NCBI GenBank assembly: GCA_964460155.1
Contig: CAYWSV010000003.1
Location: 1 to 46,048 of the forward strand
Direction of reading: 5' to 3'
Source of the DNA: an uncultured Oligoflexia bacterium
Lineage (GTDB): Bacteria > Bdellovibrionota_B > Oligoflexia > Silvanigrellales > Silvanigrellaceae
Length of the DNA stretch: 46,048 nucleotides
Positions 1,481 to 35,224 of this stretch are shown piece after piece. The notes under the pieces were generated by a model. It ran no database searches. It had not been told where the DNA came from and worked only from the letters and a program-made list of their open reading frames with translations. Every line of letters starts with the position of its first letter. Position 1 is the first letter of the stretch. The position numbers were made by a program, and so were the translations under genes.

Positions 1481-1633
1481 TTTGGTCTTAAACAATAATG
1501 AAGTGAGAAGAAAAGCTCCTCGACGTGATTTCTCTAATGACCCGTAATCAAAGATATTAACAAACAATCATTCAGAAATTCATGGGCGTATTCGATATCT
1601 CCTATGGCGATACCCATCCACGGGAGTTTATCT

Positions 1634-3781
1634 ATGAAGAAGACTCAATTCATTCGGCCATTATTTCTTTTGGCGGTCATTGGTTGCGGAATGGATGAGA
1701 ATCGCAATTCGAAGCAGGTAACGCTCGAGAACATGAGTTCCAGATCAGCCAACGAGCCTGAGTCTCTGGGTGTGGATGGAAAATTCGCGTCCGTCGCGTT
1801 GCGCGTTTCGCCGATGACACCGCAGGAACTTCAATCGAAGGAAATCGACTCGTACATCCGGTTTAAGCAGGCCAATGGAGTTGAGTGCTCGGGTGTTGTT
1901 TCGTACGAACCAACAAGCAATGGGTCGGGGATGGTTGATGTGTTTCTCTATACCGCCCTGCACTGCTTACAAGAAACAAATGCCCTTGGAGTCTTGAAAA
2001 ACTCTTCCCCCAAGATTTCAGAATCTTTCGTGTACAGAATGGGTGGATTGGGTAATGGTTCGGTGACGCTGACTACACCTAACAAAACGGTGCTCGTTGA
2101 TGATGCTCGAGTGATTCATGTGCTGCACAACGGTCAGGACAAGGCCGATGTTGCGCGCATTTGGCAGTTCCGAGCACCGCTTGCCGAGGTCTCGGCAAAG
2201 CTCATTCCCGTTTGCACAAACCGACTCTCGGATTCCAAGTCAGAAGAAGTTGCTGCTCTGGGATTTTATATTGAAAAAGGGAACCAGTTTGAATTAATAC
2301 CTTCGCCCTCTTCATGGCACAAAATTGCAGATGAATTTCAACACAAATTAATTTCGTCCGTCATTGCGGAAGTCAATCCAAAAACAGAAATGCTCAATTC
2401 AAGGCTAAAGCAGTTTTTTGGAGCAGGAACAAAAGTTGGTGTTTCACCGTATTTGTTAAAGTTGGGTGCAACTTCCTCGCAACCCGGTGAATCCGGTTCA
2501 CCTGTGTATTCGGTTTCAACAGTCCTCCAGAATTCACTTCAGTTTTCGTCTTCCATATTGAAAACTGATGGAATAAATCAGGAAAAATTTAAGAGGGTAG
2601 GCACATACAATTGCCTCACTGGAATTTTGGCGCGCGAGCTTGCTCAACGGGCTCAGAATGCACCAGCAGGTGCTCCGGCTCTCGTCTATGATACGTACTT
2701 TAGCCCGTTCCGTGATGCATCCGACCGTCGCTGGGTGAGTTTTGATGGTACCAAAGATCTCACACAAACATTCGCACCCCCTGCAGATTTACTTGCATCT
2801 CGAACTTTCAACACTCTTGCGAAGGTTCATATTTCTCGCAATCCTTTAGGCATAACAGAAGATTTCGATGTGTTGGTCGGGAGCAAGCTCGCTGCCTCGA
2901 TGTCTAACTCAGGCATTCTCACAACCGCTAGTCAGGTCATCCCCAGTTCTATTGCAGCTCCCAAGCCAACCATCGAAACCAAAACAATCAATAGCAACCA
3001 AAACAATGTGAATGTTGAAACACTGTTTGGTTCTTCGGTTTACAAATCCAACTCTGCAAAAGTGGTCGTCATCAATAGTTCTGTTGTCATATCTTCGACC
3101 TCCAGCAAGAGCCCTGCACTGTTGATTCCTTCTGGAGCGGGAGGCTCAATCACGATAAAAAATAGCGGAAAAATAATTGGTAAAGGCGGTAGTGCCGGAA
3201 CTGACGGCGGTGATGCGCTGCATGTTCGCAGTCCAGCAATCGTCGAAAATACGGGAACGATTGCAGGTGGTGGCGGCGGCGGTGGCAACGGTGGAAATGG
3301 CGGACGTGGTGGTAATGGCGGTCTAAGTGGATTCACCGGTTCAGCTGGAGTGGGTGGTGCTGGTGGTGCCGGTGGAACTGGCGGCGCAGGTGAGGATACC
3401 CAGCCAGCGCTATCGGGTGAAAAAGGTAAGACTGGTGCGCAGGGAACTCTGCTCGGCGGAACACGTGGCGGCACTGGAGGCACTGGTGGTCAGGGTGGTG
3501 CAGGCGGAAAACTCGGTATGAATGGCTCTGCGGGTCAATCGGGTGGTGTTGGAGGAAAGGGTGCGGATGGCACTCGAACAAAAGGAAGCGCTGGATCAGC
3601 TGGAAGTTCAGCCGGTGCTGGAGGACTGGCTGGATTTGCCATTCAGGGAACAAAGCTCACCAGCGGACGTTTGAAAGTTGGATCGCTGTGTCAAACCGTT
3701 GTGTCACAAATGGGCACACTTTTGGGTCGTCAGGGTGATACAGTCAACGCGACAGATTTTAGTAATTCAAAATGTCAGTAA
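1634..3781 (+). CDS. Lipoprotein with an N-terminal trypsin-like serine protease domain and a C-terminal polyglycine-rich region
   Basis: MKKTQFIRPLFLLAVIGCG is a lipobox signal, preceded by a GGGAG RBS. TALHC supplies the His motif and GESGSPV the Ser motif, typical of S1/trypsin-like peptidases. Residues about 510-680 of the ORF are GGxGG-type repeats, including GGGGGGGNGGNGGRGGNGG. Confidence 0.7.
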   Translation: MKKTQFIRPLFLLAVIGCGMDENRNSKQVTLENMSSRSANEPESLGVDGKFASVALRVSPMTPQELQSKEIDSYIRFKQANGVECSGVVSYEPTSNGSGMVDVFLYTALHCLQETNALGVLKNSSPKISESFVYRMGGLGNGSVTLTTPNKTVLVDDARVIHVLHNGQDKADVARIWQFRAPLAEVSAKLIPVCTNRLSDSKSEEVAALGFYIEKGNQFELIPSPSSWHKIADEFQHKLISSVIAEVNPKTEMLNSRLKQFFGAGTKVGVSPYLLKLGATSSQPGESGSPVYSVSTVLQNSLQFSSSILKTDGINQEKFKRVGTYNCLTGILARELAQRAQNAPAGAPALVYDTYFSPFRDASDRRWVSFDGTKDLTQTFAPPADLLASRTFNTLAKVHISRNPLGITEDFDVLVGSKLAASMSNSGILTTASQVIPSSIAAPKPTIETKTINSNQNNVNVETLFGSSVYKSNSAKVVVINSSVVISSTSSKSPALLIPSGAGGSITIKNSGKIIGKGGSAGTDGGDALHVRSPAIVENTGTIAGGGGGGGNGGNGGRGGNGGLSGFTGSAGVGGAGGAGGTGGAGEDTQPALSGEKGKTGAQGTLLGGTRGGTGGTGGQGGAGGKLGMNGSAGQSGGVGGKGADGTRTKGSAGSAGSSAGAGGLAGFAIQGTKLTSGRLKVGSLCQTVVSQMGTLLGRQGDTVNATDFSNSKCQ

Positions 3782-3846: not shown

Positions 3847-4419
3847 ATGAATTTCAAATTGGTGTCATACATATCGATGTTCATCGCGGGGATTTGCAGC
3901 TCTTTTCCGGCTCAAATACGAGCAGGTTCGGTCAATGGAGTGAGTGGTGTAACTTCGGTGAGCTGTGAAGATCGGCGTACGCATGTCGATATGTCTTGGT
4001 GCACAGACGCCGCTGCCACTCAGCTCTATGAAAAATGTTTGGTGATGATTCATAAAGATGTTGAGAACGTGAGCAAATGCGACTGGCAGGGATGTGGTCC
4101 AATTTCTTTAGTTGGTGAAAAGGCAAAAATCGATGGCGATAATGTTGTCGAGTATGGGATTAAAACTCCTTTTGCCGGAGCCTCGAATCCACCAGCAAAT
4201 TGGAATTTAAACCCTGCAACCAAAGAGGTCCTTCCGAAATTCCCCTACAACCGTCAATATATGACAATTCCAGAGTTTGTTGCGAAACAGGGTGAGTGTA
4301 AACGTGGCACAAATGGTGATCCTGTGCTTGAAAGAATCTGTCCGATAGATTCGAAGGCATATGATATGAACGTTTATTTTTACTGCATGAAGAATAAGGG
4401 AAAGCTGCCCTCACTCTAG
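3847..4419 (+). CDS. Hypothetical secreted cysteine-containing protein
   Basis: The ATG at 3847 follows an AGGAAG RBS. The N-terminal signal peptide is MNFKLVSYISMFIAGICSSFPAQIRA. The mature part has about 9 Cys and no family I recognise. Confidence 0.55.
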   Translation: MNFKLVSYISMFIAGICSSFPAQIRAGSVNGVSGVTSVSCEDRRTHVDMSWCTDAAATQLYEKCLVMIHKDVENVSKCDWQGCGPISLVGEKAKIDGDNVVEYGIKTPFAGASNPPANWNLNPATKEVLPKFPYNRQYMTIPEFVAKQGECKRGTNGDPVLERICPIDSKAYDMNVYFYCMKNKGKLPSL

Positions 4420-4518
4420 TAAAAATACAAATAAAATCAGAAATATATAAAATCATCAATCTTTTTGTCTCAATATATCAGTTCGAATTGCCGATCCTTA
4501 CCCAATGAGGACCGAGCA

Positions 4519-5454
4519 ATGAATTTTTCCGTTTTCATATCTTTGTCTGGAATCTTTGTTGCAGTTGCTGCCTGCACAGGGCCGGCTCCGACGATTATCA
4601 TCAGGAAAACCCCAACCGAAGCTCAGGTTGGAAGTGTGTCTTCCGGCAAAAATCAGAAATCGGATTCAGAGGCAACGGCTGACGTCGGCTCAAAGAGCGT
4701 CGATGGCGATGGCGAGAATAATGGCGGAAACAACAACGCCGAAAATAATGGTGGAAATAATAACGGCGAGAACAATGGTGGTAACAATGTCGCCGAAAAC
4801 AACGGCGAGAACAATGGTGGCAACAAAGTTACAGTTTTGCCACCCGTCGGTAATCAGGATCCATTGGCATGGCTGCCCGTGGGTGACTTTCCGTTGTCGT
4901 CTGCCCAGATGAAGGGAGTCAACGAATGTGCCAACGCCACAAATATTATCCGCTCGGCATGCCAATCGAAGAACAGTCTGTGTCGTTCCTCATTTGCTGT
5001 GACTTGCGATTCTTCAACAGACTGCCGCAGGCTTTTTAAATGCACAACCGGACAAACGGGTGCATTGATATGGTTCCCCATGGGCAACGACGTTAAAAAA
5101 TCAGCTCAGGTATCGAACATATGTCCAATCAATTCGAACATCGCGGGCGCGGCGTGCCAAACAGTCAATGACCGTTGTTTGTCGAGCTTCTGCACGAGTG
5201 GATCTGGCGATGATTGTGGACGACGTCTGTTCAAGTGCATGACCTCCGGCGAACCTGGGAGGTTGTTTTGGCGTTGGGTGGAGGACAAGTCATCCGCTGA
5301 GCTCGCAGCGGCTGGTATTGCCACCTGCCAATTGGACAAAAATGTCGCTGGGGCTTCGTGCTCGGGTATGAATTCACTGTGTCAGTCGTCCTTTTGCGCG
5401 CAGGGAGAGGCTCCCAATTGCACGAAACGCCGATTGTTCAAGTGTACTCCGTAA
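4519..5454 (+). CDS. Hypothetical lipoprotein with an Asn/Gly tandem repeat followed by three six-cysteine modules
   Basis: MNFSVFISLSGIFVAVAACTG is a lipobox signal. The ENNGGNN repeat is followed by three modules that each end in RRLFKC(T/M). Confidence 0.65.
   Translation: MNFSVFISLSGIFVAVAACTGPAPTIIIRKTPTEAQVGSVSSGKNQKSDSEATADVGSKSVDGDGENNGGNNNAENNGGNNNGENNGGNNVAENNGENNGGNKVTVLPPVGNQDPLAWLPVGDFPLSSAQMKGVNECANATNIIRSACQSKNSLCRSSFAVTCDSSTDCRRLFKCTTGQTGALIWFPMGNDVKKSAQVSNICPINSNIAGAACQTVNDRCLSSFCTSGSGDDCGRRLFKCMTSGEPGRLFWRWVEDKSSAELAAAGIATCQLDKNVAGASCSGMNSLCQSSFCAQGEAPNCTKRRLFKCTP
4714..4827 (+). repeat. In-frame tandem repeat with a 27-nt unit, encoding ENNGGNN(N/V)(A/G) about 4 times
   Basis: Read directly from the sequence: gagaataatggcggaaacaacaacgcc / gaaaataatggtggaaataataacggc / gagaacaatggtggtaacaatgtcgcc / partial units. 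Confidence 0.8.
4927..5445 (+). repeat. Three tandem modules of about 55-60 aa, each with six Cys (protein-level repeat)
   Basis: The three modules are CANATNIIRSACQSKNSLCRSSFAVTCDSSTDCRRLFKCT, CPINSNIAGAACQTVNDRCLSSFCTSGSGDDCGRRLFKCM and CQLDKNVAGASCSGMNSLCQSSFCAQGEAPNCTKRRLFKCT. Confidence 0.75.
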
Positions 5455-5544: not shown

Positions 5545-7134
5545 ATGCTTGCAAACGAATTGTCTGCGTCTGCCTACGAGTGGCTTTCGCGCGTGACTTA
5601 TGGCGTCAATGACGAGCTCACCGCGCGTTTCACAAAACTTGGGCCTGATGATTTTAAGCGTTGGCAGGCCTACGTGCAGGACCAACTCAATCAAACTTCA
5701 TTTCTTGATTCGGCGGTCGAAAGTCGAATAGAAAAAATGTCTCTCAAAACCCTCGGACAAAATCTACCACAGCTTTGGACCAATCATTTTTTGGCGAGTC
5801 GAAAAATGAGTCGCATGACCGCTCGTGATTCATCAATGCCGCTCACCTCCGACGAAGAGAAAAAAAGTAGGCGCGCACGACGCGAGGTTGCTCTCGAGCC
5901 CGTTTATGATCTCGAGGCCGCAAGCTGGATTCGGATTGTCTATAGCCCCTTCCAAATCTTCGAAAGGATGGTTGAGTTTTGGCATGATCATTTCAATATT
6001 CATGCGTATGAGGGACGTGTTGCTCCTGCATTTCTTATTCTGAACAGAGACGTTATCCGCACACATGCCCTTGGGAATTTTCGTCAGCTTCTTGGTGGAG
6101 TCTGCAAAAATCCGGCGATGTTGGTTTATTTGGACAATGCGTTCAACCAAAGCGGAAATCCGAATGAAAACTTCGCCCGTGAGCTTTTTGAGCTTCATAC
6201 ACTGGGTGCAGAGAATTATCTCGGAACATTGGATCGAGACAAAGTAAGACGCGATAAAAACAACGTGCCCGAAGGCTACGTTGATGGAGATGTTTATGAG
6301 GCTGCACGTGCATTCACGGGCTGGCGCGTTGAAGATGGAACTTATGGACTATCTGCAAACACTGGGCAATTTATATACTCTGAGATGTGGCATGATCGTT
6401 TTCAAAAGGTCATTCTTGGTAGGAAGTTTTCTGAACATCAACCTCCTTTGAAGGATGGCGAGGATGTTCTGGATTTATTGTGCTCCCATCAGGGAACCGC
6501 GCGTTATATTGTTCGTAAGATGTGTCGAAGGTTTATTTCTGACACGCCCCCAGAAAGCCTTATTCAATCAATCTCGGTGTCTTTTCTGAAGCGGAAGGAT
6601 TCTCCAACACAGATTCGCGATACACTTTCGGACATTCTTAATTCTCAGGAATTTATCTCAAACAAGAGCAGGAAATTTAAACGTCCCGTGGATTATTTCG
6701 CAAGCTTGCTGCGCTCTTCTGCGTCGACATTCGAGACAACAGACAAGTTTGTGAATAGCGTCAATCGGTGTGGACATCGTCTCTTTGGCTGGAAAACACC
6801 CGATGGTCCGCCCGATGAGGCAACGCCTTGGCAATCGCCCCAGAGTCTAATTGAGCGCTGGAAAGTCGCTCAACAGATTCTGTCATCGCAAATTATTGGC
6901 TGTGAAGTCGAACTCAGAGCGTCGAAAGACCCAGTCACACCCGAAGGGCTCGCATCTGAGGTTGGTCGTCGGCTTCTTGGTCCTCGCATGAGTGAGGTCC
7001 TCCGTGCACAACTTGTTCAACGAGCTGCAGGCGGACGACGTGTTGATATGGATTTACCCGAGCAGCTACTGCCTGCCCGTGCCGTTCAAATCGCAGAGCT
7101 TGTTGTCATGAGCCCAGAGTTTCAGTTGAGGTAA
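5545..7134 (+). CDS. DUF1800 domain-containing protein
   Basis: The FWHDHFN and ELHTLG motifs are typical of DUF1800. The gene is immediately followed by its usual DUF1501 partner. Confidence 0.75.
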   Translation: MLANELSASAYEWLSRVTYGVNDELTARFTKLGPDDFKRWQAYVQDQLNQTSFLDSAVESRIEKMSLKTLGQNLPQLWTNHFLASRKMSRMTARDSSMPLTSDEEKKSRRARREVALEPVYDLEAASWIRIVYSPFQIFERMVEFWHDHFNIHAYEGRVAPAFLILNRDVIRTHALGNFRQLLGGVCKNPAMLVYLDNAFNQSGNPNENFARELFELHTLGAENYLGTLDRDKVRRDKNNVPEGYVDGDVYEAARAFTGWRVEDGTYGLSANTGQFIYSEMWHDRFQKVILGRKFSEHQPPLKDGEDVLDLLCSHQGTARYIVRKMCRRFISDTPPESLIQSISVSFLKRKDSPTQIRDTLSDILNSQEFISNKSRKFKRPVDYFASLLRSSASTFETTDKFVNSVNRCGHRLFGWKTPDGPPDEATPWQSPQSLIERWKVAQQILSSQIIGCEVELRASKDPVTPEGLASEVGRRLLGPRMSEVLRAQLVQRAAGGRRVDMDLPEQLLPARAVQIAELVVMSPEFQLR

Positions 7135-7142
7135 CTCGATCT

Positions 7143-8399
7143 ATGTCACTGAGCTTGAAACGAAGAGAATTTCTACTTGGTCTGGCTGGTGGTGTGACTT
7201 CAGTTGTGCTGCTGAAATCCCTCGAAGAAACTGGGGTTTTGAACTCCGCTGCACGAGCTGATTTGGTCGAAAGAAGCCGCAACGTTCTTTTGGTCGTGTT
7301 CCTGCGCGGGGGGTTCGACGGACTGAGTTTAGTGTGCCCAGTTCAAGGGCAAGATCGACGTGATTATGAATCAGCTCGACCTACCCTTGCGCTGCCGTTG
7401 ACTGGCGAGGGTGCCGCTTTAAAACTCGACGAGCAATTCGCTCTGAATTCTGCAGCGAAACCTCTTCATGGATTGTTTCTTGAAAAGAGACTTGCATTCA
7501 TTCAGTCCTGCGGTTTGCCCATCCCATCTCGCAGTCATTTTGCTGCTCAAGCTCTTATGGAATTGGGTGTGAGTCGAACAGGGGCTGACAACCGTGGTTG
7601 GTTGACTCGATTTATGGCTCAGCATCCATCCAAGGCTGCTGTCATCGGTCCGCTACGTCCTACGTCCTTGCAAGGTGCAGACAACATTATGGCCTACAAT
7701 CGGCTCAGAGGGCTTGGGCTTGAAGGCACTCCGCAGCAACAAATTCAACTGCGAAGCGCGTTACGGAGCTTGTATGCTCAGCAGGGTCAAGCTGGGGGAT
7801 ATGGACTGACCGCGCTCAACATGCTCGATGAATTGGAAGACATCTCATTAAAAATGGGGACAAAAGATAAAACTGAACTTCCATCGGGCGAAATAGCTCA
7901 GAAATTTGCAATTGCGTCACAGCTTTTGCAGCGAGACTCCAAGTTACAAATTATGACACTTGATATTGGTGGATGGGATACCCACAGACAGCAAGGCAGT
8001 AACGACGATGGTTACTTTGCCAAACAGCTTGCGAATCTTTCACGTGCGCTTGTCGATTTCCAACAGCACAGTTTGACGAGCAGTAATGCATGGGTGACGA
8101 CTGTGGTGATGAGCGAATTTGGTCGGCGAGTCAAAGAAAACAGCAATCGAGGAACAGATCACGGCCACGGCAATATTATGATGGTTGCTGGGCCACGCGT
8201 GCGCGGTGGACAACTTTTGGGTCAGTGGTCTGGACTTTCGAACGAGAAACTTTTTGAGCGCGCCGACCTCGCTGTGACAACTGATGTTCGTGTTGTGTTG
8301 CATAAGTGTATTCAGGCTCTGGCCCCACAGGTCAATTTGAAGTCTGTTTTTCCTGATGCTGAATTAGGAACATCAGCTCTGTCGGATCTTCTGATTTAA
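7143..8399 (+). CDS. DUF1501 domain-containing protein (sulfatase-like fold) with a Tat signal
   Basis: The N-terminus KRREFLLGLAGG is a twin-arginine signal. The motifs GGWDTH, SEFGRR and TDHGHG match those recalled for DUF1501. Confidence 0.8.
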   Translation: MSLSLKRREFLLGLAGGVTSVVLLKSLEETGVLNSAARADLVERSRNVLLVVFLRGGFDGLSLVCPVQGQDRRDYESARPTLALPLTGEGAALKLDEQFALNSAAKPLHGLFLEKRLAFIQSCGLPIPSRSHFAAQALMELGVSRTGADNRGWLTRFMAQHPSKAAVIGPLRPTSLQGADNIMAYNRLRGLGLEGTPQQQIQLRSALRSLYAQQGQAGGYGLTALNMLDELEDISLKMGTKDKTELPSGEIAQKFAIASQLLQRDSKLQIMTLDIGGWDTHRQQGSNDDGYFAKQLANLSRALVDFQQHSLTSSNAWVTTVVMSEFGRRVKENSNRGTDHGHGNIMMVAGPRVRGGQLLGQWSGLSNEKLFERADLAVTTDVRVVLHKCIQALAPQVNLKSVFPDAELGTSALSDLLI

Positions 8400-9555: not shown

Positions 9556-11709
9556 ATGCAGGCGCCAAAATGGGAAAAGAAGATTCTAATTGCCATAGCA
9601 CTCGCTTTATCGATCTTTGTTTTCTGGAAGATTCTTACTCATCAGAAAGCCTCTCTTGATGTGAGTGCAAAGAAGATGTCGCTCTTGGAAAAACAGGAGG
9701 TTCTGCAGCTCAAGACGTGGGACATGATCTTTTATTTTTGTCCATATGCCAAGGGCGCGACGACTGCAGAGAATTGTTACGAAGACGTCCTGAGTAAACC
9801 TCAAAAACTAGATCTTCCACTCAAAGACTTTAAAAATCCAACTCTAACCTTCAACGTTGGGTCTCAAAATGTAACGAAACCAGCAAATACGGTACAAATC
9901 TCTTATTCGTTCACTGAGGAAGAAAAGAACACACTCAAAACTTCATCCGAATGGATGCTGCTCATTCCGCGCAACGCCCACCGAGCAACTTTTCTGGGTG
10001 ACAACATGTCTGGTGAGTCGACCTATGGACACGTCACAGATTCAAGCTTTGGGCTGACACTCAACCAAATAATGAAAGCTGGGAAAATTGATCTTATCAT
10101 CAACTACAAGCCATATCCCAGTTTCGGACCGCTGGACTTGCCCATTGCGCTCGCGAAACCAAATTCATCGCGTGAATATTTAAACCTTGTAGATATGCAA
10201 ACGAGCGCAGCTGCTTTGTCAAAACAATTTCTTGTCGGCGTGCCCGTTGTAATGAGTGCAATTGCAAGTGTTCTTGACCACAGCCCAACGATGTTGCTGC
10301 TCGCACTCTTTGGAGTCTGCCGTGCTGTCTTCACTTATTTTGGGTTTGTTTCCGAGACCGCAGCTCTCACGAATCCGCAAATGTTGATTGCCTACATGAG
10401 TTTGGGAGCATCGTTTGCTCTACTTTTGATGTTTGTTGAAAAGCTGCTGGGTCTTTCGTTTAAGAGAATTAGGAATTGGCATCGTGTTGTTTTCACCTTA
10501 TTCTGTGCAATTCTCTGCTACTCCGGTTCTTTTCTCGATTCGAATTATCAAGTTACATCGTCCCTCTGGGTCGATACTTTGGGAGCATTTATTTCCCTCG
10601 GTTTGCTGATTTTCGCACTTTATCCCTGGATGAGATCACGTTTCGGCAGAAAGTCCGACAACACGACGGTCACTGCGCCACAGCAGGCTGAACTTTCACT
10701 TTCAAAGGGCCTTGTCGTCGTGCAATTTGCACTTGCTGCAGCAACATTTTTGATTTCTGGGAGCGTCAATCTGTCCGAGCTTATAGGTCAGATCGGCGGC
10801 GAAAAGGTCTTTGTGGATCCACTTGACTGGCGCCACATGATGCTGATGCCCGCCCTACTGACAGCAGGTTTGCTCGAGGTCGGATCAATTGCCAAACGTA
10901 TGCTGACGTTTGGACACGAGATGGCAGAGAAGGCAGTCATTGAGAAAGAACTCATGGTTGGACGCGACGTTCAGGCACGAATGCTTCCTGATAAACGATT
11001 CATGGGCGAATACTGGAAGTGGCGCGCAATTTATCATCCCGCCGAAGCTCTTGCAGGTGACTGGTTTGATATTCGAGAGATTGAATTCAAGGATGGTCGA
11101 AAATTGCTGGCCGTGTGTCTGGCTGACGTGACGGGGCATGGTGTTGGTTCATCACTTTCAACCAGTGTGATTTGTTCCCACTGGAGTCTTTGGTGCGCTT
11201 CTCTTGGGCTGATGGAGTTTCCAGCGGATAAATCCGACCGTGAAAAAATTCTTGTGACTGCTCCGGTTAAAATTCATGAAGGTCTTTCTGCGCTGAGAAA
11301 GAATGAAAACTGCACAGCTATGATCGCGTTGATTGATCCCTACGCACGTGAACTGACAGTCACCTCGGCAGGCCATCCGGGCGCGCTCATTATCGGTTCC
11401 AAAGCGCTTAGGTACGTGACAACTGCCGGCGAAAGACTTGGTGGCGATTTGATGGGCGAGGCTAAGTGGAATCCTCGAACGGAACCTTTGTCAGATGAGG
11501 ATCTTGTTGTTATTTATTCCGACGGAATTGTGCCCGTTGGTGGAACTGTCTTGGGTTGGGCTGGTCAATTGAAAAAGAAAATTGTTGCCGGGACTGTCGG
11601 TCAACCCGAATTGTTCCTGTTGAAAACCCTGCACGATAACAAGCGGGCATTTATGAAAGATCCGTCTAATGAAGACGACATGACTTTGATTATGCTTCGC
11701 CGAGGTTGA
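9556..11709 (+). CDS. Membrane receptor-type PP2C (SpoIIE-family) serine phosphatase
   Basis: The ATG at 9556 follows a GAGG RBS. The layout is a signal anchor, an extracytoplasmic region of about 220 aa, about 7 predicted TM helices, then a C-terminal PP2C core (GDWFD, ADVTGHGVGSS, SAGHP, YSDGIV, DDMTLI). Confidence 0.75.
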   Translation: MQAPKWEKKILIAIALALSIFVFWKILTHQKASLDVSAKKMSLLEKQEVLQLKTWDMIFYFCPYAKGATTAENCYEDVLSKPQKLDLPLKDFKNPTLTFNVGSQNVTKPANTVQISYSFTEEEKNTLKTSSEWMLLIPRNAHRATFLGDNMSGESTYGHVTDSSFGLTLNQIMKAGKIDLIINYKPYPSFGPLDLPIALAKPNSSREYLNLVDMQTSAAALSKQFLVGVPVVMSAIASVLDHSPTMLLLALFGVCRAVFTYFGFVSETAALTNPQMLIAYMSLGASFALLLMFVEKLLGLSFKRIRNWHRVVFTLFCAILCYSGSFLDSNYQVTSSLWVDTLGAFISLGLLIFALYPWMRSRFGRKSDNTTVTAPQQAELSLSKGLVVVQFALAAATFLISGSVNLSELIGQIGGEKVFVDPLDWRHMMLMPALLTAGLLEVGSIAKRMLTFGHEMAEKAVIEKELMVGRDVQARMLPDKRFMGEYWKWRAIYHPAEALAGDWFDIREIEFKDGRKLLAVCLADVTGHGVGSSLSTSVICSHWSLWCASLGLMEFPADKSDREKILVTAPVKIHEGLSALRKNENCTAMIALIDPYARELTVTSAGHPGALIIGSKALRYVTTAGERLGGDLMGEAKWNPRTEPLSDEDLVVIYSDGIVPVGGTVLGWAGQLKKKIVAGTVGQPELFLLKTLHDNKRAFMKDPSNEDDMTLIMLRRG

Positions 11710-17277: not shown

Positions 17278-18732
17278 TTATTTACGGCAGGAAATAGTGA
17301 CTTCTTTTTTGGGGCTCTTTGGATCATTCGTGTCGAAGATTACTTTTAGACCTTCTCCTGCAATCAAATCACGAATTTGATTCTGCGCCAGAATTTCCTT
17401 TCTATACTTGGGATCAGTCATCCAGCGCACAGGATGAGCAATTTGCTCGCCGAGGTCTTTGAAGTCCTTGTAGCGGATGGTGATTGTCAGCATGCCATAG
17501 CTATGTGGCGGGCCATCGCTGTTGCCATTTGTGTTGCTCCATTCGCTTGAACGACGGACGATGCCCAAATCGAAAAAGACCCTCTTATATCTCACGACAA
17601 CTCCAGCCTTGAGGTCAACAACAAAGGGCACGGTTGTCGTGTAATAATCGGAATCACCGTCGATACGGTAATTGTTCATAATGAGTCTTGCTTCAGCACC
17701 AAAATAAAGGTTCAGGCTCCAATTCTTGTTGCTGCAAAGAATCTTCTTGAGTCGGTTTTGAGGGCTCATCATCGCGAGCTCTTCAATAAGTGAGGGAGTC
17801 ATTTTGTTACCGACGTACATGTCGATAAGCGTTCCCAGCAAACGGTAATTAAAAACGACGCCCGCATTTACATAATTCGTAAACGATCCGGCGTTGCCTC
17901 CGCCGTTGATGATGACGTTGTATTCAGGCTCCGAGTCACCGTAGAGATCTCCTTCGCCAACCTTAATAAATTTTTGAAAATTAATACTGAAGTAAAAACG
18001 ATCGGCTGCCTGAAAATCCCAATTGACTTCTTTGTCGCCTATCAGCCTATGAAAACCATTTTGGACCTGTTCGGCAAAAGAGCCGCGACCAATCGTGCCC
18101 AATTGTGTTTCCAATCGCTGCATCGATCTCACTCTGGCTTTGTTCTTATCCATCTTGTACGAATTGACGGCTGCACCGCAGTAAAGAACACCAGCGTTCG
18201 GTGGTTGGTCTGGCCGCTTAGTGCCAATGTCGTTGTTGTTGGTGTTGTAAATATTCTGGCCGCACAGAAAAAAGAAATCGCTGTGATCGAATCCAAGTTT
18301 TTTAAAGAATTTTTCGAACTCAGGATTATTAAAACTTACTTCGACTTTAAGGCCATTGGTGTAATAAACATCCGTGCCCGCAAGAAAGTCATTCTCCATC
18401 GTCATCTTTAGACCATCAATGACCGGACGATCTTTGAGAAGCTCGTCAATCTCCTGTTCCGTCAATCCGTCTCTGCGCAGTGAGTCAACGAAGCGCCGCT
18501 CGTTTTCATCTTTCAATGACCTAAACGTGGGAACCAAGGCTTTATCTTTGACCATAAGCCGAAGCTCACGTTGTTGATTCGTGAGTGATGAGTCATAGAG
18601 AATGTCGATGATGTCTGCGACTTCGTCATATATTTGCTTGTTTTCGAAATAGTCGGGCCTATCGAAAAAGCTTGCCTTCGCCAACGCAGGAAAAAATAAC
18701 AAAATAACAAATAAAAATAACGCTTTTTGCAT
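17278..18732 (-). CDS. LpxR-family lipid A 3'-O-deacylase-like outer-membrane protein (DUF2219) with an N-terminal extension
   Basis: The signal peptide is MQKALFLFVILLFFPALAKA. The motifs ENDFLAGTDVYYTNG and QVQNGFHRLIGDKEVNWDFQ parallel LpxR/DUF2219 signatures (END...D..YT.G; QN..HR.IG). Confidence 0.65.
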   Translation of the reverse strand: MQKALFLFVILLFFPALAKASFFDRPDYFENKQIYDEVADIIDILYDSSLTNQQRELRLMVKDKALVPTFRSLKDENERRFVDSLRRDGLTEQEIDELLKDRPVIDGLKMTMENDFLAGTDVYYTNGLKVEVSFNNPEFEKFFKKLGFDHSDFFFLCGQNIYNTNNNDIGTKRPDQPPNAGVLYCGAAVNSYKMDKNKARVRSMQRLETQLGTIGRGSFAEQVQNGFHRLIGDKEVNWDFQAADRFYFSINFQKFIKVGEGDLYGDSEPEYNVIINGGGNAGSFTNYVNAGVVFNYRLLGTLIDMYVGNKMTPSLIEELAMMSPQNRLKKILCSNKNWSLNLYFGAEARLIMNNYRIDGDSDYYTTTVPFVVDLKAGVVVRYKRVFFDLGIVRRSSEWSNTNGNSDGPPHSYGMLTITIRYKDFKDLGEQIAHPVRWMTDPKYRKEILAQNQIRDLIAGEGLKVIFDTNDPKSPKKEVTISCRK

Positions 18733-18876
18733 GCCACAGGCCTTCAAGTTTTTTTGAAATGACTGGGCACTGGATATAACACAAGCAGTTAAAGTTCAAT
18801 TCCAGGGCAGAATCTGTGTGAGTTGTATGAGAGATACGGACGGCAATCTGCCGTTCTATTAAAATTTATCCCAAAA

Positions 18877-24169: not shown

Positions 24170-26458
24170 TCACTCGCCTCCAATGCTACAGGAGTCGAGT
24201 TTTAGTGATTCGGATTGTTCTCCAAATTCACAGTCGCCATCTGCTTTTCTTGCACCTACGAGAAGCATACGACACATGTTTTTGCAGACGCTGAGGCTCG
24301 GTGTTGTGAATGTTGCATAGTTTTTCCCGGAGACAAGAACTCGGCATGATCTTGAAATCGAGTCTTCTTTAAAAACACCATTCGTGGCGGAGAGGGAAAG
24401 TACTCGAATACTTCCAGCAGCAATTTGGTTTTTCGGGCCCTTGATTGACAATGGTTGTGATTTTCCATCAATAGCTGAATCGAAATCTTTCGGTATTCGT
24501 CCAACACAATTACCGTCGACCTCTGAACATGTTCCAATCTGTGACGAACCAAGAAACAGCATTGCGTTTTGGAGCTGGGCATTTGCTGGGTCGGTAAGCC
24601 GAACAAGAACAGAACTTCCCCTTCCAACGGAGACATCAGTTTTTGTGTCTCCCATTGGTGCTTTGACTTCCAAAGAATAGCCCATAGATGCTCTCAATGC
24701 GCGAAATAAATTTAACCTTCTGCCTTTATCAATTTTGGAAGAAAGCGCTGCAAGTTCATCCGATGTATCAAGTACAAGGCGACGAATATCGCTTGATGTT
24801 CTTGATGGATCGAGACTCCAAATAAGAGCTACAGCCCCCGCAACGTGTGGGGCCGCCATGCTCGTGCCGCTCATGAATTCGTAGCCTTGAGCAGGCATGC
24901 TTATTAAAGTCTGCCTAAAAATTGGCAGGACTGTGAAATCCGGATTGTTTTCGTGCGGTTTGAGAAGCGCCAAGTTCTTTTGCGTCAAGTTACTTGGAAA
25001 TGTAGACATGATCATGTCTCCGGGCGCTGATATGTGGACATTTTTAGGGCCGAAATTCGAATAGAGCGAGACTTGATTGTTCGCACTGATGGAGCCGACG
25101 TTTATTATATTTGGGAGATCGAGCGTGCCGGGGAACTGAGAATTCGCCTCCAGAGAGACATCTACTGCTTCATTACCTGCAGCTGATACAATGATGCCAC
25201 CCTTCTTTCCAAATGAGTCGACCGTTGAATAACTTGGTGACGTCGGCAACTTGTCTGCGGCAGAGAGAGTTCCTGAGAGTGACATATTGAGTACCTTTAC
25301 CCCAATAGATTCTGCATATTTGATCGCCGAAAGAATCTCAGATCGCCTGCCCACACCGCATCGATTCATTGATCTAAGCACAATGATTTCTGCCTTCCAG
25401 CACACACCAGCAACGCCGATTCCGTTGTTTGCGACGGCGCCAATGGTTCCTGCAACGTGTGTACCATGGCCATGTTGATCTGTTATTAGTCCACTGTCGA
25501 CCGTATTTGGCTCGGTCGAGAGAAATTCATTTTTTTTGCAATCGGGCTGTGTCAGTGTTTGTTGAGTTGCAAAATTTCGAGAGAGCGCGAGGTTAAGATT
25601 TCCCTTGAGGTCTGGATGATTCGCATCGACTCCACTGTCAAGAACCCCGATTTTTATTGCGCTGCAATCACGTTTCAGTGGCCAAGAAGTGTCAGCTTTT
25701 AAATTTGCGTCCGGATTGATAGCAAGTAGCGGCGCTATTTCAGCCGGTTCGAATTTAGATCGAACGATGGCACTCGTTTTTTGACCACCAATCGCATATT
25801 GGAGCGGCAAAAGCGGATCGTTCGTTGCTTGGTTGATCGACATGATGTCATCGGGTCCGACACTCGAAATTTTATTCGATGAGCGGACTCTTTCCATCGT
25901 TTCAAAATACTCTTCAGCGGACTGTGCGCTTATTGTTACTTCCCACAGCGTTGGACTGCCAAGGTTGCGCGCTGCAGTGACTCCTGAATTTTTAAGTTCA
26001 GAAATCAGGGTTTCATTCGTTTCTGCATCTGATGTTGTGATGATTAGACTGTCCCCAAGCCATTCACTTGGTTTATTTTTGTTTGAACCTTCTGTTTTAT
26101 AAACTTGGATGATGGGTCGGTATCCTGACTTCGAGATCCATTTGAACACCGTACTGCTTTGCTTTTCCTGTATGCTGTTTTGCGCGTTGAGGCGCGCTGT
26201 ACCCGAGTCTGTATTTTGGGGTTTGTTTTGCGGCCCCAGATTATTAGACCCGGTGGGTGTCAGGTGCGTCTTTGGATTTTCTGATTTTGCATTTAGGCTT
26301 TGTTTTTCTTCGTCGCTCGCTTCCGAATGTCGCGGTTCAGTGCTTGCGAGCTCGATTGCTTCAGTCGTGTTTTTCATGCGTGTGAAAAACCATGTAGAAA
26401 CGGCCAACAGAACGGCCAACAGACTTATAGTCCACGCAAACGTTGACTTTCGTTTCAT
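24170..26458 (-). CDS. Subtilisin-family (S8) serine peptidase with N- and C-terminal extra domains
   Basis: The catalytic triad motifs are VLDSGVDANHPD (Asp), HGHGTHVAGTIGA (His) and SGTSMAAPHVAGAVAL (Ser). There is an N-terminal signal anchor. Confidence 0.85.
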   Translation of the reverse strand: MKRKSTFAWTISLLAVLLAVSTWFFTRMKNTTEAIELASTEPRHSEASDEEKQSLNAKSENPKTHLTPTGSNNLGPQNKPQNTDSGTARLNAQNSIQEKQSSTVFKWISKSGYRPIIQVYKTEGSNKNKPSEWLGDSLIITTSDAETNETLISELKNSGVTAARNLGSPTLWEVTISAQSAEEYFETMERVRSSNKISSVGPDDIMSINQATNDPLLPLQYAIGGQKTSAIVRSKFEPAEIAPLLAINPDANLKADTSWPLKRDCSAIKIGVLDSGVDANHPDLKGNLNLALSRNFATQQTLTQPDCKKNEFLSTEPNTVDSGLITDQHGHGTHVAGTIGAVANNGIGVAGVCWKAEIIVLRSMNRCGVGRRSEILSAIKYAESIGVKVLNMSLSGTLSAADKLPTSPSYSTVDSFGKKGGIIVSAAGNEAVDVSLEANSQFPGTLDLPNIINVGSISANNQVSLYSNFGPKNVHISAPGDMIMSTFPSNLTQKNLALLKPHENNPDFTVLPIFRQTLISMPAQGYEFMSGTSMAAPHVAGAVALIWSLDPSRTSSDIRRLVLDTSDELAALSSKIDKGRRLNLFRALRASMGYSLEVKAPMGDTKTDVSVGRGSSVLVRLTDPANAQLQNAMLFLGSSQIGTCSEVDGNCVGRIPKDFDSAIDGKSQPLSIKGPKNQIAAGSIRVLSLSATNGVFKEDSISRSCRVLVSGKNYATFTTPSLSVCKNMCRMLLVGARKADGDCEFGEQSESLKLDSCSIGGE

Positions 26459-32406: not shown

Positions 32407-32713
32407 GGGCACCTCCAAAGTGTTCACGTCGACTGTGCTGTCGGGCGTAGCACTCGTCTGACCGCGTTTCAATGAAAAAAAACAGAGTCTAAAAAGAAAC
32501 AACTTCAGGTCTGAAAGCGTATTAAAATCCCAATAAAACCGGTGTGATAAAAGCGCGCCAAACGCGAAGCGTCAATCACTGTCCAACATGGTTTAGGGCA
32601 ATATTCTTGGCATGTCCCCTCCGATCATCTCGGGCTATCTTTGATCAACCGAAAACCGAACTAAAAATCCAGTTGAGCTGCCTACAGAGTCGTTGAATGC
32701 GGAGGCCAGAATC

Positions 32714-35224
32714 ATGATACGCATGCTTTCCATAATTTCAGTACAATTTGTGCTGATTTTTGCACTGACTGCCTGCAAAAGAACGCAAACGGCCTCGGTT
32801 CAAAGCGAAATCTCGGGACCTATCATTCTTCCCTCTGAGAATCCCATCGTCCTCACACAGGTTGGGCAAGCGGCAATCAACAATGCTGCCGACATTATAA
32901 AGACGAGCACTGATGTGATGCTCTACAATCAAGATCATAAATTTAAGCCCGTCGATGTGATTATCGACCCCGATGGCAGCGAGCACGTGCGCTTTCACAG
33001 AACCTACAAAGATGCTCCTGTTCTTGGCGGCGACCTTGTAACGCATCGTCTTAAGAACGACCCATCGAAACGCATCAGTGTTGCATCATCAAATATTATT
33101 GATGTCGACGTCACTGAATTGGTCTCAAAGGAACGCGCAACTCAAATAGCGTCGGCTGCATTTCAGGGAAAGTATGTAGGCACGCGTTCAGCACGGAAAG
33201 TTATTTTTAATGCGAAACAGGAGCCGCGAGTTGCCTGGGAAATTATCCAATCGGGAGTTTCGGCCAGAGGATTAATGATCGAAAAAAAGATCTTCGTCGA
33301 CGCGCGCAGAGCGATTGTGTTGGCACAATGGGATCATCTTCAAAGTGTGGCCGCGCAGGGCCAAGGCTTTCACTCGGGAACCGTGAATCTCAATGTCACA
33401 GCATCGGGCTTACAATTTCTTCTTAAAGATTCAACGAGAGGCAATACACTCACAGGTGACTTGGTGCAGACCGAGAGCGCTGATGTTCCACCTCCAGTGA
33501 GTTCTCCGACCACACTGTTTGGCGATGGAAATTTGAATCCAATGAGCCTTGCCGTAGATGCTCAATTTGGTGCGTCTATCACGTGGGATTACTTTTTAAA
33601 TATTCACAGCCGCAAGGGAACAAACAACGACGGGCGCGGAGTCAAATCGCGTGTTAACTATGGAGTCAACTATGGCAACGCGTTTTATGACCCGCTGTGC
33701 GATTGCGTGACCTATGGTTCCGGCGACGGGCAATTCCTAAATGCCACCACGGCACTGGATGTCGTTGCACATGAAATCAGTCATGGTCTGACAACTCATA
33801 CGGCCGACCTTCTCTATTGGAGCGAATCAGGCGGTCTGAATGAAGCAACGAGCGATATTTTTGGAGCTATGGTTGAGTTCTATGCGAATATTCCAAGTGA
33901 CCCACCTGACTATATTTTAGGAGAAAAAGTTGTTGTTCGAGAGACTCTGGGCGAAGGCCTGAGGTTCCTGTACAACCCAAATCTCGATGGATTTTCTCCC
34001 AATTGTTACACCGATGCAGTCGCAGACATGGAGGTCCATTCATCATCGGGCATCGGGAATCATTTCTTTTATTTGCTGGCAGAAGGATCTAATCCAGCTT
34101 CACCACTTCCTCCTTCGCCAACCTGCAACAACTCTCAGCTCAACGGCATAGGTCGGCAAAAGGCGGCGCGAATTTGGTATCGAGCGCTGGTCACCTACAT
34201 GACCTCGACGACAGATTATCGGGGAGCGCGCTTGGCGACGATTAGAGCTGCAAACGATTTGTTTGGCAAAGCCTCGCCTGAATCGACAGCTGTGGCTTCG
34301 GCTTGGGCCGCTGTTGGTCTAAACTCAAATTTTAAAATTGAAGCCATTCCGGATCAGATGATTCAAACTGGAAAGCGGCACTCAATCGAGATTGTTGTTC
34401 AAAACGCTAAAGAAAATTGCGCAACCGAGCTCAAGGTGACGTCCAGCAACAAAGAACTTATTCCCCAGTCAGGTCTTGTGGCTTCACGTTTTGCTCCAAG
34501 TTGTCTGCTCACAATTCAGCCTGTGGCGAATAAGCGCGGGCAGAGCACAATCACATTGAACTATGGTCAAGGCGAAACAGCGGTCAGTCAGAGTTTTCTC
34601 GTCACCGTTGCAGACATCAACGTTCCTCCTCAAATCACCAACATTCCTGATCAGTCTATTCAAGAAGACACGACTTTGAATGTGAACGTGAAAGTATCCG
34701 ACAAAAATGACCCGCTGAATTGTGCAAAGAATTTGGATGCAACTTGGGACAACCCTGCACTTTTGGATCCACGCGGATTATCGTTCCGCGGAACCGCTCC
34801 TCATTGCACTCTTGTTTTGCGTCCTTATCCGAACGCAAACGGAAAGACCAAGGTGACGGTGACTGTAAAAGACCCAAGTGATGCAGCAGCAACAGATTCA
34901 TTTAATCTGACCGTTGTACCGGTCAACGATGCTCCGAATATCCTCTCCATCAAGGACCAGAGGTTGTTATCGAGCACGACGCTTATCGTGAGTTTGAAGG
35001 TTGTCGATGTCGATAATCAAATACAGTGTGCAGCAGTTAAGGCTACGAGCTCGAATCAGTCGATTGTCAAAAACAGCTCATTAACGGTTTCCGGAACTGC
35101 GCCCAACTGTCTTCTCAAGATTGTACCGCTGAAAAATGGAAACGGTGCGACCGTAATTAAGCTTGATGTCACAGATGGAAAACTCAAAGGCACCAGAAGT
35201 TTTAAGGTGAATGTGACCCGCTGA
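32714..35224 (+). CDS. Thermolysin-family (M4) zinc metalloprotease lipoprotein with three C-terminal cadherin/Ig-like repeats
   Basis: The ATG follows a GGAGG RBS and the lipobox is IFALTAC. The catalytic motifs are VVAHEISHG (HExxH) and GGLNEATSDIFG (the third zinc ligand Glu). The C-terminal 300 aa form three repeats of about 100 aa. Confidence 0.85.
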   Translation: MIRMLSIISVQFVLIFALTACKRTQTASVQSEISGPIILPSENPIVLTQVGQAAINNAADIIKTSTDVMLYNQDHKFKPVDVIIDPDGSEHVRFHRTYKDAPVLGGDLVTHRLKNDPSKRISVASSNIIDVDVTELVSKERATQIASAAFQGKYVGTRSARKVIFNAKQEPRVAWEIIQSGVSARGLMIEKKIFVDARRAIVLAQWDHLQSVAAQGQGFHSGTVNLNVTASGLQFLLKDSTRGNTLTGDLVQTESADVPPPVSSPTTLFGDGNLNPMSLAVDAQFGASITWDYFLNIHSRKGTNNDGRGVKSRVNYGVNYGNAFYDPLCDCVTYGSGDGQFLNATTALDVVAHEISHGLTTHTADLLYWSESGGLNEATSDIFGAMVEFYANIPSDPPDYILGEKVVVRETLGEGLRFLYNPNLDGFSPNCYTDAVADMEVHSSSGIGNHFFYLLAEGSNPASPLPPSPTCNNSQLNGIGRQKAARIWYRALVTYMTSTTDYRGARLATIRAANDLFGKASPESTAVASAWAAVGLNSNFKIEAIPDQMIQTGKRHSIEIVVQNAKENCATELKVTSSNKELIPQSGLVASRFAPSCLLTIQPVANKRGQSTITLNYGQGETAVSQSFLVTVADINVPPQITNIPDQSIQEDTTLNVNVKVSDKNDPLNCAKNLDATWDNPALLDPRGLSFRGTAPHCTLVLRPYPNANGKTKVTVTVKDPSDAAATDSFNLTVVPVNDAPNILSIKDQRLLSSTTLIVSLKVVDVDNQIQCAAVKATSSNQSIVKNSSLTVSGTAPNCLLKIVPLKNGNGATVIKLDVTDGKLKGTRSFKVNVTR
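34334..35221 (+). repeat. Three tandem protein-level repeats of about 100 aa (cadherin-like) in the M4 protease
   Basis: Each unit begins I(P/K)DQ, carries a conserved Cys pair (...C(A/T)... and AP(S/H/N)C(L/T)L) and an N(K/A/G)(R/N)G(Q/K/A)(S/T) turn, and ends F.(V/L)(T/N)V...(V/N)(P/D)(P/A)(Q/N)I. Confidence 0.7.

Follow-up and report, generated by a model that had tools for sequence, protein, structure and literature searches.

Few protein folds are rarer than the polyglycine-II (PGII) sandwich, which is known best from the tip with which T-even phages bind their receptor. The adhesin gp38 is monomeric. Its attachment domain is N-terminal, segments from both termini make up a beta-helix, and the rest is a three-layer PGII sandwich (PDB 6F45; PMC12032242). 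The sandwich is built from Gly-rich motifs, and its hypervariable loops bind outer-membrane proteins (OMPs) (PMC12032242). Phage-fibre-like adhesins are also used by a predatory bacterium, as the mosaic adhesive trimeric (MAT) fibres of Bdellovibrio serve in the recognition of bacteria (PMC10769870), and these fibres are long trimers that carry a C-terminal S74 self-cleaving chaperone-protease (PMC10769870). Here, a chromosomal gene from an uncultured Oligoflexia bacterium is described in which a domain of the gp38 type is joined to a serine protease-like domain. It lies on the forward strand at positions 1634–3781 of a 46,048-nucleotide stretch of DNA (GenBank assembly GCA_964460155.1, contig CAYWSV010000003.1, positions 1 to 46,048), which was analysed at its full length and is referred to below as the window. 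An earlier note, made from the sequence alone, had described the product as a trypsin-like protease fused to a polyglycine-rich C-terminal region.

We hold with moderate confidence that the gene encodes an exported, lipid-anchored protein of two modules, a divergent S1 protease and a gp38-type adhesin, the latter most likely targeting the protease to a surface. Residues 449–715 belong to the lineage of phage gp38-type tail-fibre adhesins, and the protein represents a new domain architecture made from two known folds. The earlier note knew of no described architecture that tethers a protease to such a region, and as far as the combination is concerned this still stands, as no description of a protease with a gp38-type domain in a cellular lipoprotein was found in a limited literature search, and the fusion is extremely rare in the databases searched. 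It does not stand for the Gly-rich region itself, which has more than 500 phage or prophage homologues and is more distantly related to T-even gp38 by both profile alignment (hhalign) and structure comparison (Foldseek). The features of the gene are as follows, with residues of the 715 amino acid (aa) protein counted from the start at 1634 and the basis of each assignment in brackets.

1622–1626 (+): Shine-Dalgarno-like GGGAG, 7 nt upstream of the ATG at 1634 (read from the sequence)
1634–3781 (+): whole gene, 715-aa lipoprotein with S1-like protease and gp38-like adhesin domains (open reading frame list, relatives)
1634–1687 (+): signal peptide with lipobox (LAVIG-C18) and a Gly after the lipidated Cys (sequence, relatives)
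1688–1828 (+): N-terminal tether, residues 19–65, with an E-x-x-L-G motif (L45, G46) (conservation)
1829–2749 (+): divergent S1 (chymotrypsin-fold) serine-peptidase-like domain, residues 66–372 (conservation, PDB profile, AlphaFold2 (AF2)/Foldseek)
1961–1963 (+): codon of His110
2147–2149 (+): codon of Asp172
2492–2494 (+): codon of Ser287
2750–2977 (+): Ser/Asn/Thr-rich linker, residues 373–448, poorly conserved (composition)
2978–3262 (+): gp38-like beta-helix part and first Gly-rich motif, residues 449–543 (...ALLIPSGAGGSITIKNSGKIIGKGGSAGTDGGDALHV...NTGTI) (PHROG, hhalign, Foldseek)
3263–3643 (+): Gly-rich motifs alternating with variable loops, residues 544–670, predicted PGII sandwich (composition, periodicity, homology)
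3644–3781 (+): closing gp38-like strand motif (GGLAGFAIQG...MGTLLGR) and Cys686...Cys714 bracket, followed by the stop codon (hhalign, conservation)
3847–4419 (+): partner gene directly downstream, secreted product of ~165 aa (mature) with 8 Cys (comparative loci)

The open reading frame (ORF) at 1604/1634–3781 (+) was confirmed as present in the window. The ATG at 1634 is the likelier start than 1604, as it is preceded by the GGGAG at 1622–1626 and the protein that begins there starts with MKKTQFIRPLFLLAVIGC, which has the form of a classical signal peptide and includes a lipobox. The segment MKKTQFIRPLFLLAVIG-C18 conforms to the lipobox pattern [LVI][ASTVI][GAS]C, and C18 is predicted to be lipidated. 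Among relatives whose sequence includes the N-terminus, the full-length ones and most of those with only the N-terminal domain keep a lipobox that ends in C-G. In the tether, L45 and G46 are invariant in alignments of the five fusion proteins and of seven sequences, and the E-x-x-L-G motif is also visible in an alignment of 28 members of the protease family. Kept throughout the S1-like lipoprotein family in an otherwise variable tether just after the lipidated Cys, this motif may mark a propeptide or processing site, or act as a sorting signal. The linker at residues 373–448 has a mean identity of 27% to four relatives and an AF2 predicted local distance difference test (pLDDT) score below 50.

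Residues 545–670 are 47% Gly, with the G-run GGGGGGGNGGNGGRGGNGG starting at residue 545. The Gly repeat is GGx, two Gly in every three residues with almost no Pro, and Gly occupancy has a period of 3 (autocorrelation 0.64, 0.40 and 0.25 at lags 3, 6 and 9). Four full-length relatives of the 715-aa protein, with 34–65% identity, were found in independent metagenomes, and the Gly positions are kept in all four. Between the window protein and the 65%-identical relative, 35 of the 56 conserved Gly residues are on different codons, indicating purifying selection on the protein. As the tandem repeats in the DNA of this region are weak (2.1–2.6 copies of 9–18 bp), the Gly positions are kept and the codons have changed, the Gly region is a selected protein sequence and not an assembly or low-complexity artefact. 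Identity among five homologues is 0.68–0.88 in the Gly-rich motifs and 0.09–0.40 in three of the four intervening loops, the fourth (residues 626–636) having 0.73. Cys686 and Cys714 are invariant in the five fusion proteins and absent from the phage homologues inspected; these are the two Cys residues that the earlier note had seen as a bracket and had numbered C696 and C724, counting from 1604.

The C-terminal domain was compared with phage proteins at several levels. Residues 449–562 match phrog_10745 in PHROGs (E = 6.8e-19), and a longer stretch matches phrog_11439, annotated 'tail fiber protein' (E = 6.8e-8). A profile search with this domain found 516 proteins of about 270–470 aa of the phage or prophage tail-fibre-tip type, and a scan of viral contigs for the Gly pattern confirmed at least three loci. 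The phage homologues are collinear with the domain over profile positions 9–245, in two pieces split by an insertion. The homologue in Rhizobium phage RHph_TM34 (EVB35_042) directly follows an annotated tail-fibre gene, and others have genes for phage lysozyme, Gp77 and the SU10 adaptor around them, or are found at a prophage edge behind a Peptidase_S74 fibre gene. A tblastn search of phage genomes with the C-terminal region gave no match, for which the low-complexity filter is one possible reason.

A profile of 121 C-terminal domain sequences searched against the PDB was swamped by synthetic (GGS)n linkers. E-values are therefore unreliable for a composition so rich in Gly, and hhalign with reversed and shuffled controls was relied on instead. 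The profile of the window family was aligned with that of eight T-even adhesins, including S16-like, T2, RB6, JS10 and Merlin gp38, with 92% probability (E = 5e-7, score 52.8), and the alignment joined window residues 457–554 to gp38 residues 54–159. The reversed profile scored 18.5, 60 column shuffles scored at most 24.7, and 60 shuffles of 8-column blocks had a mean of 18.6 (sd 4.0, maximum 30.7). The closing motif was also aligned with gp38 (score 28.1; shuffle mean 13.5, sd 2.3, maximum 19.9), pairing GGLAG-x-x-I-x-G…N-x-GT-x-x-G in the window protein with GGAAG-x-AV-x-G…N-x-G-x-IYG in gp38. In an AF2 model of the full-length protein from a five-sequence alignment (pLDDT 35.8), only residues 445–545 were usable (pLDDT 55–77). 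When this model was compared with the whole PDB using Foldseek, the best two matches were both gp38 structures, 9v85_C (probability 1.00) and 6f45_D (probability 0.99; root-mean-square deviation 3.8 Å over 109 columns), and the next-best probability among the 50 listed matches was 0.13.

T-even gp38 (S16 gp38, 6F45; PP01 gp38, 9V85; PF05268) and the window protein have the same order of elements, beginning with the beta-helix segment, in which both have the motif …I-x-G-x-GG-x-G…GGD-x-I…N-x-G-x-I-GGGGGGG. The alternation of conserved Gly motifs with variable loops and the period of 3 in the window protein fit gp38, and the closing motif GG-A-AG-x-x-(V/I)-x-G…N-x-G-x-(I/V)-x-G is common to both. 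However, the window protein lacks the Gp38_N attachment domain (PF21721 was not matched in a Pfam scan) and has no neighbouring gp37-type fibre gene, and its Gly region is longer, with other loops and the extra Cys686-Cys714 bracket, and is placed C-terminally on a lipoprotein protease. The phage and prophage tip proteins (phrog_10745, phrog_11439; RHph_TM34 EVB35_042) are closest to residues 449–685 (profile E-values 1e-19 to 1e-35), but they are stand-alone proteins of 270–470 aa with their own N-terminal region and are encoded beside tail-fibre genes. Those examined also carry an aromatic-rich insertion of ~60–100 aa between Gly motifs, which is absent in the window protein. The I-x-N-x-G-x-I segment is beta-helix-like, as the earlier note had proposed, and residues 544–670 probably adopt the PGII conformation that it suggested for the GGx runs, as judged from the gp38 homology and the period of 3. 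The earlier note had counted alignment to any well-characterised family as fatal to its claim, and in these general terms this applies, since the region aligns to gp38; the two examples that it named, autotransporter passengers and collagen-like triple helices, are both excluded.

The phage homologues form a gp38-like family in their own right outside the T-even phages. Its unannotated phage or prophage proteins of 270–470 aa fall into more than 500 clusters (P0006–P0125 among them), with examples at L005 (6001–7029), L019 (8001–9152) and L020 (4053–5273). Members share an N-terminal region and are recorded as 'hypothetical protein' in Rhizobium phage records.

The other part of the earlier note, an S1-type protease behind a lipobox, was borne out. 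The motifs quoted in it, including TALHC and GESGSPV, are all present in the ORF, where TALHC is at residue 107, ADVARIW at 171, GESGSPV at 285, SITIKNSGKIIGKGGSAG at 505 and AIVENTGTIAGGGG at 535. The His, Asp and Ser residues are intact, and H110 (TALHC), D172 (DVARIW) and S287 (GESGSPV) are invariant in the five fusion proteins and in the seven-sequence alignment. In the 28-sequence family alignment, which has a mean column identity of 15%, these three are near-invariant (at least 90% conserved) and C85, C111, C194 and G288 are invariant; Cys85 and Cys111 flank His110, as in the S1 'histidine loop'. The family motifs in these 28 sequences are (T)A-x-H110-C, a near-invariant D172-x-x-R and G-(D/E)-S287-G-x-P-V, with distant members reading GDSGSPV or SDSGAPV at the Ser motif, and a C327-x-x-G-(I/V)-x-(S/T)-R-E segment occupies the place of GIVSWG in trypsins.

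Searches of the PDB with a single sequence (phmmer) or a five-sequence profile found nothing. The 28-sequence profile gave 22 matches, mostly to S1 peptidases, led by lysyl endopeptidase (E = 0.0018) with collinear pieces at the His and Ser motifs and matches confined to those regions, and followed by a factor Xa-trypsin chimera, plasminogen activator, streptogrisin B, plasmin and TMPRSS11A. An AF2 model of residues 66–372 built from the 28-sequence alignment had a pLDDT of 71.3 and a predicted template modelling (pTM) score of 0.78. Foldseek comparison of this model with the PDB gave 24 matches at E <= 1e-3, and the first 41 matches were all to S1 folds, the best being Fusarium trypsin (1try, 1.9e-5), with granzymes, trypsins, TMPRSS2, exfoliative toxin and NAL1 also found. 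Residues 66–372 are therefore taken to be a very divergent S1-fold domain with a complete His/Asp/Ser triad, and a putative active protease.

Compared with lysyl endopeptidase (Achromobacter protease I, 1ARB/4NSY) and Fusarium trypsin (1TRY), the domain has the same His-Asp-Ser order and a predicted double beta-barrel, and shares with S1 peptidases the motifs C…TA-x-HC, D-x-x-R and G-(D/E)-SG-x-P as well as a G-(I/V)-x-(S/T)-R-E segment in the place of GIVSWG. However, the Pfam trypsin models (Trypsin/Trypsin_2) are not matched, the identity to the structural matches is 10–14%, and the domain has 307 aa with large insertions against about 225 aa in S1 peptidases. An obligatory partner gene, a lipoprotein anchor and the Glu that precedes the catalytic Ser further set the window protein apart.

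The protease family is very small. A word-indexed search of 5.8 billion proteins found only three further relatives of the protease domain, which are lipoproteins of 461–530 aa with no Gly tail, and an exhaustive hidden Markov model (HMM) search of 1.84 billion representatives brought the total to 36 proteins with this domain. A scan of 20 distant relatives of the protease domain found a Pfam domain in none of them. Among 185,579 species genomes, the domain was found in one metagenome-assembled genome (MAG) only, 'Proteobacteria bacterium WB4_1_1462', which has two copies. The fusion to a Gly tail is known in six members, namely the window protein, P0002–P0005 and a copy in MAG WB4_1_1462 that is cut by the contig end. 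A combined alignment of proteins with only the N-terminal or only the C-terminal domain was dropped, as in it the N-only sequences had their second halves aligned to the Gly region by MAFFT. The other copy in MAG WB4_1_1462, a paralogue with no Gly tail, appears split into two adjacent ORFs (L007, 5791–6993 and 6997–7428). The second ORF is the counterpart of the C-terminal extension, with its Cys residues, that P0126-type proteins carry, and the split could reflect a sequencing error, a frameshift or a stop codon.

The partner gene follows all six protease-family genes for which downstream DNA could be read, whether or not they encode a Gly tail. Besides the window copy, it was found at the following positions in the comparative loci.

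L001, 10145–10717: partner gene
L002, 10312–10953: partner gene
L004, 10323–10901: partner gene
L007, 7579–8166: partner gene, downstream of a relative with no Gly tail
L021, 3488–4075: partner gene, downstream of a relative with no Gly tail

The partner proteins are 46–87% identical, with eight invariant Cys residues, and no Pfam, NCBIfam or PDB match was found for them. In L007 and L021 the partner is 46–47% identical to that in the window, whereas the proteases are only ~25% identical. As the partner also follows the relatives with no Gly tail, it is part of the protease module, to which the adhesin domain was added later in one small clade.

The two modules can be combined into a mechanism. 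The first would be a chymotrypsin-fold serine peptidase with a His110-Asp172-Ser287 triad, drawn from a tiny lipoprotein family with a disulfide-rich partner, and the second a cellular copy of the gp38-type tip fold, in which a short beta-helix carries a PGII-helix sandwich with variable loops. In one small lineage, the phage-type binding domain may have been appended to the C-terminus of the protease via the flexible Ser/Asn linker. The gp38-like domain would bind a defined surface structure through its variable loops and, by analogy with gp38, the ligand may be OMP loops or lipopolysaccharide (LPS) of another bacterium. Binding would keep the tethered protease against its substrate, and the partner probably regulates the protease, as an inhibitor, a chaperone or a substrate.

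Several points weigh against a protease targeted by a surface adhesin. Neither domain is reported by Pfam or NCBIfam models, scans of the whole protein having found no family at E <= 1 and those of the C-terminal region nothing of use, and the TM-scores of the Foldseek matches of the protease model are modest (0.43–0.55). An hmmscan with PF05268.17 misses the window protein and the phage-like homologues, yet finds true gp38 at 1e-63 to 1e-79, and the PF05268.19 (GP38) label for the window protein and those homologues comes from precomputed tables and was not reproduced. As the.19 tables list GP38 and the.17 scan finds T-even gp38 only, the label depends on the Pfam version or the filter settings. 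The lipoprotein could be oriented towards the periplasm or exposed on the surface, and it is with the protease that the partner gene co-occurs rather than with the adhesin domain. A Bdellovibrio-like organism is plausible, the two indications being the ferroportin match described below and the protease-rich neighbourhood. In the AF2 model from the five-sequence alignment, the pLDDT is below 50 for residues 547–715, and the predicted PGII sandwich is therefore drawn from homology and periodicity. Finally, as the aromatic insertion is missing, the binding surface may be reduced.

The last two points also favour an alternative that we regard as unlikely, in which the Gly tail is a structural spacer or stalk that serves only to distance or anchor the protease, has no specific ligand and is phage-derived only in its history. 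It could then be a flexible low-complexity tether or a stiff rod of PGII or beta-helix type. The ~100-aa aromatic insertion of the closest phage homologues is absent, the loops are short, and AF2 has low confidence in residues 547–715. However, invariant Gly positions with mostly variable loops are the pattern of receptor-binding gp38, conservation extends to the beta-helix part and the closing strands, and a plain spacer would need no conserved, Cys-bracketed C-terminus.

The protease domain could instead serve in maturation or auto-processing, or be a pseudo-enzyme; it might, for example, cut its own linker and so release the adhesin, or process only the 8-Cys partner. We consider this quite improbable. 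In its favour, the partner gene is adjacent in every case, partner sequences are conserved better than those of the protease (46–47% against ~25%), the usual Asp before the catalytic Ser is replaced by Glu (GESGSP), and self-cleaving protease-chaperone domains are used by phage fibres and by the Bdellovibrio MAT fibres (PMC10769870). However, the known self-cleaving domains are C-terminal S74 domains and not N-terminal S1 folds, and relatives that have no adhesin domain keep both the triad and the partner, indicating a role for the protease that does not depend on the adhesin.

It is very improbable that the gene encodes a receptor-binding protein of a phage or prophage, left as a tail-fibre remnant, even though the closest relatives of the C-terminal domain are phage and prophage proteins encoded beside tail-fibre genes. 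In four independent loci, the annotated neighbours included M74, DUF1853, DUF1800/DUF1501, M48, VirK and Lnb_N, and none belonged to a phage-associated Pfam family. A lipobox is present, Gp38_N and the N-terminal region of the phage homologues are lacking, and the protease domain occurs alone in cellular lipoproteins. With cellular neighbours and a lipobox, the prophage reading was rejected. Readings of the tail as an autotransporter passenger, as a collagen-like triple helix or as low complexity with no meaning can be set aside almost entirely, since, although the I-x-N-x-G-x-I turns resemble passenger beta-helices and there are weak compositional collagen matches (E > 3), the protein has no C-terminal beta-barrel and no autotransporter Pfam match and ends 45 residues past the Gly region, its GGx repeat with almost no Pro is not the Pro-rich G-X-Y of collagen, the collagen matches are at chance level, the matches go to gp38 instead, and conservation is position-specific despite heavy synonymous change.

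The surroundings of the gene were examined in the window and in related loci. In the window and in L001, the neighbours are an M74 endopeptidase, DUF1853, a DUF1800/DUF1501 pair, a pyridoxal phosphate (PLP) enzyme and a SpoIIE phosphatase, and in the more distant clade they are M48, VirK-like and Lnb_N genes. Downstream of the partner gene, the window has a lipoprotein-like ORF at 4465–5454 (+), with a probable start near 4519 (FVAVAAC) and no Pfam match. Its product has an Asn/Gly-rich repeat from a 27-bp tandem array (4713–4816, 3.2–3.9 copies), followed by three Cys-rich repeats ending in RRLFKC, and in L001 the equivalent position is taken by a gene for a 270-aa protein, also with no Pfam match (10853–11665). 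The module is immediately followed by the DUF1800/DUF1501 pair (5545–8399, +), whose position is conserved in L001.

The contig is dense in genes for exported hydrolases. These include an S8 subtilase of 762 aa (24170–26458, -), an M4 thermolysin-like protease of 843 aa with an FTP propeptide (32693–35224, +), a partial M74 murein endopeptidase (31–471, +) and a homologue of the lipid A deacylase LpxR (17278–18747, -). A ferroportin (PF06963) encoded at 44581–45882 (-) aligns over nearly its full length with the chain of PDB 5AYM (E = 4e-92), which is the Bdellovibrio protein.

The MAT fibres of Bdellovibrio offer a conceptual parallel to the window protein, as in both a predator would use phage-fibre-like adhesin folds, some with a protease domain attached. 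The window protein differs in that its S1 fold is N-terminal and its adhesin domain is of the gp38 type, gp38 being monomeric, and no relationship in sequence was looked for or seen. The MAT fibres are therefore an analogy and not a relative, because they are trimeric and carry S74 domains. A more far-reaching form of the targeting proposal, offered speculatively and itself unlikely, is that the monomeric phage tip has been domesticated by a Gram-negative lineage of predatory or antagonistic habit as a surface 'protease-armed adhesin'. This would recognise particular OMPs or LPS of other bacteria by its variable loops and cleave them on contact, with the 8-Cys partner acting as a safety catch.

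Taken beyond this gene, the gp38 fold family is far broader than T-even gp38 and includes hundreds of unannotated environmental phage proteins, and in the window protein a gp38-type fold has been captured by a cellular gene and joined to an enzyme. The enzyme part represents a previously unrecognised family of S1-like lipoprotein proteases with an obligatory disulfide-rich partner, for which there is no Pfam or NCBIfam model. If the adhesin does target the protease to other bacteria, the protein would provide a compact, monomeric and engineerable targeting module, and would be a new example of exaptation from phage to predator alongside the MAT fibres of Bdellovibrio.

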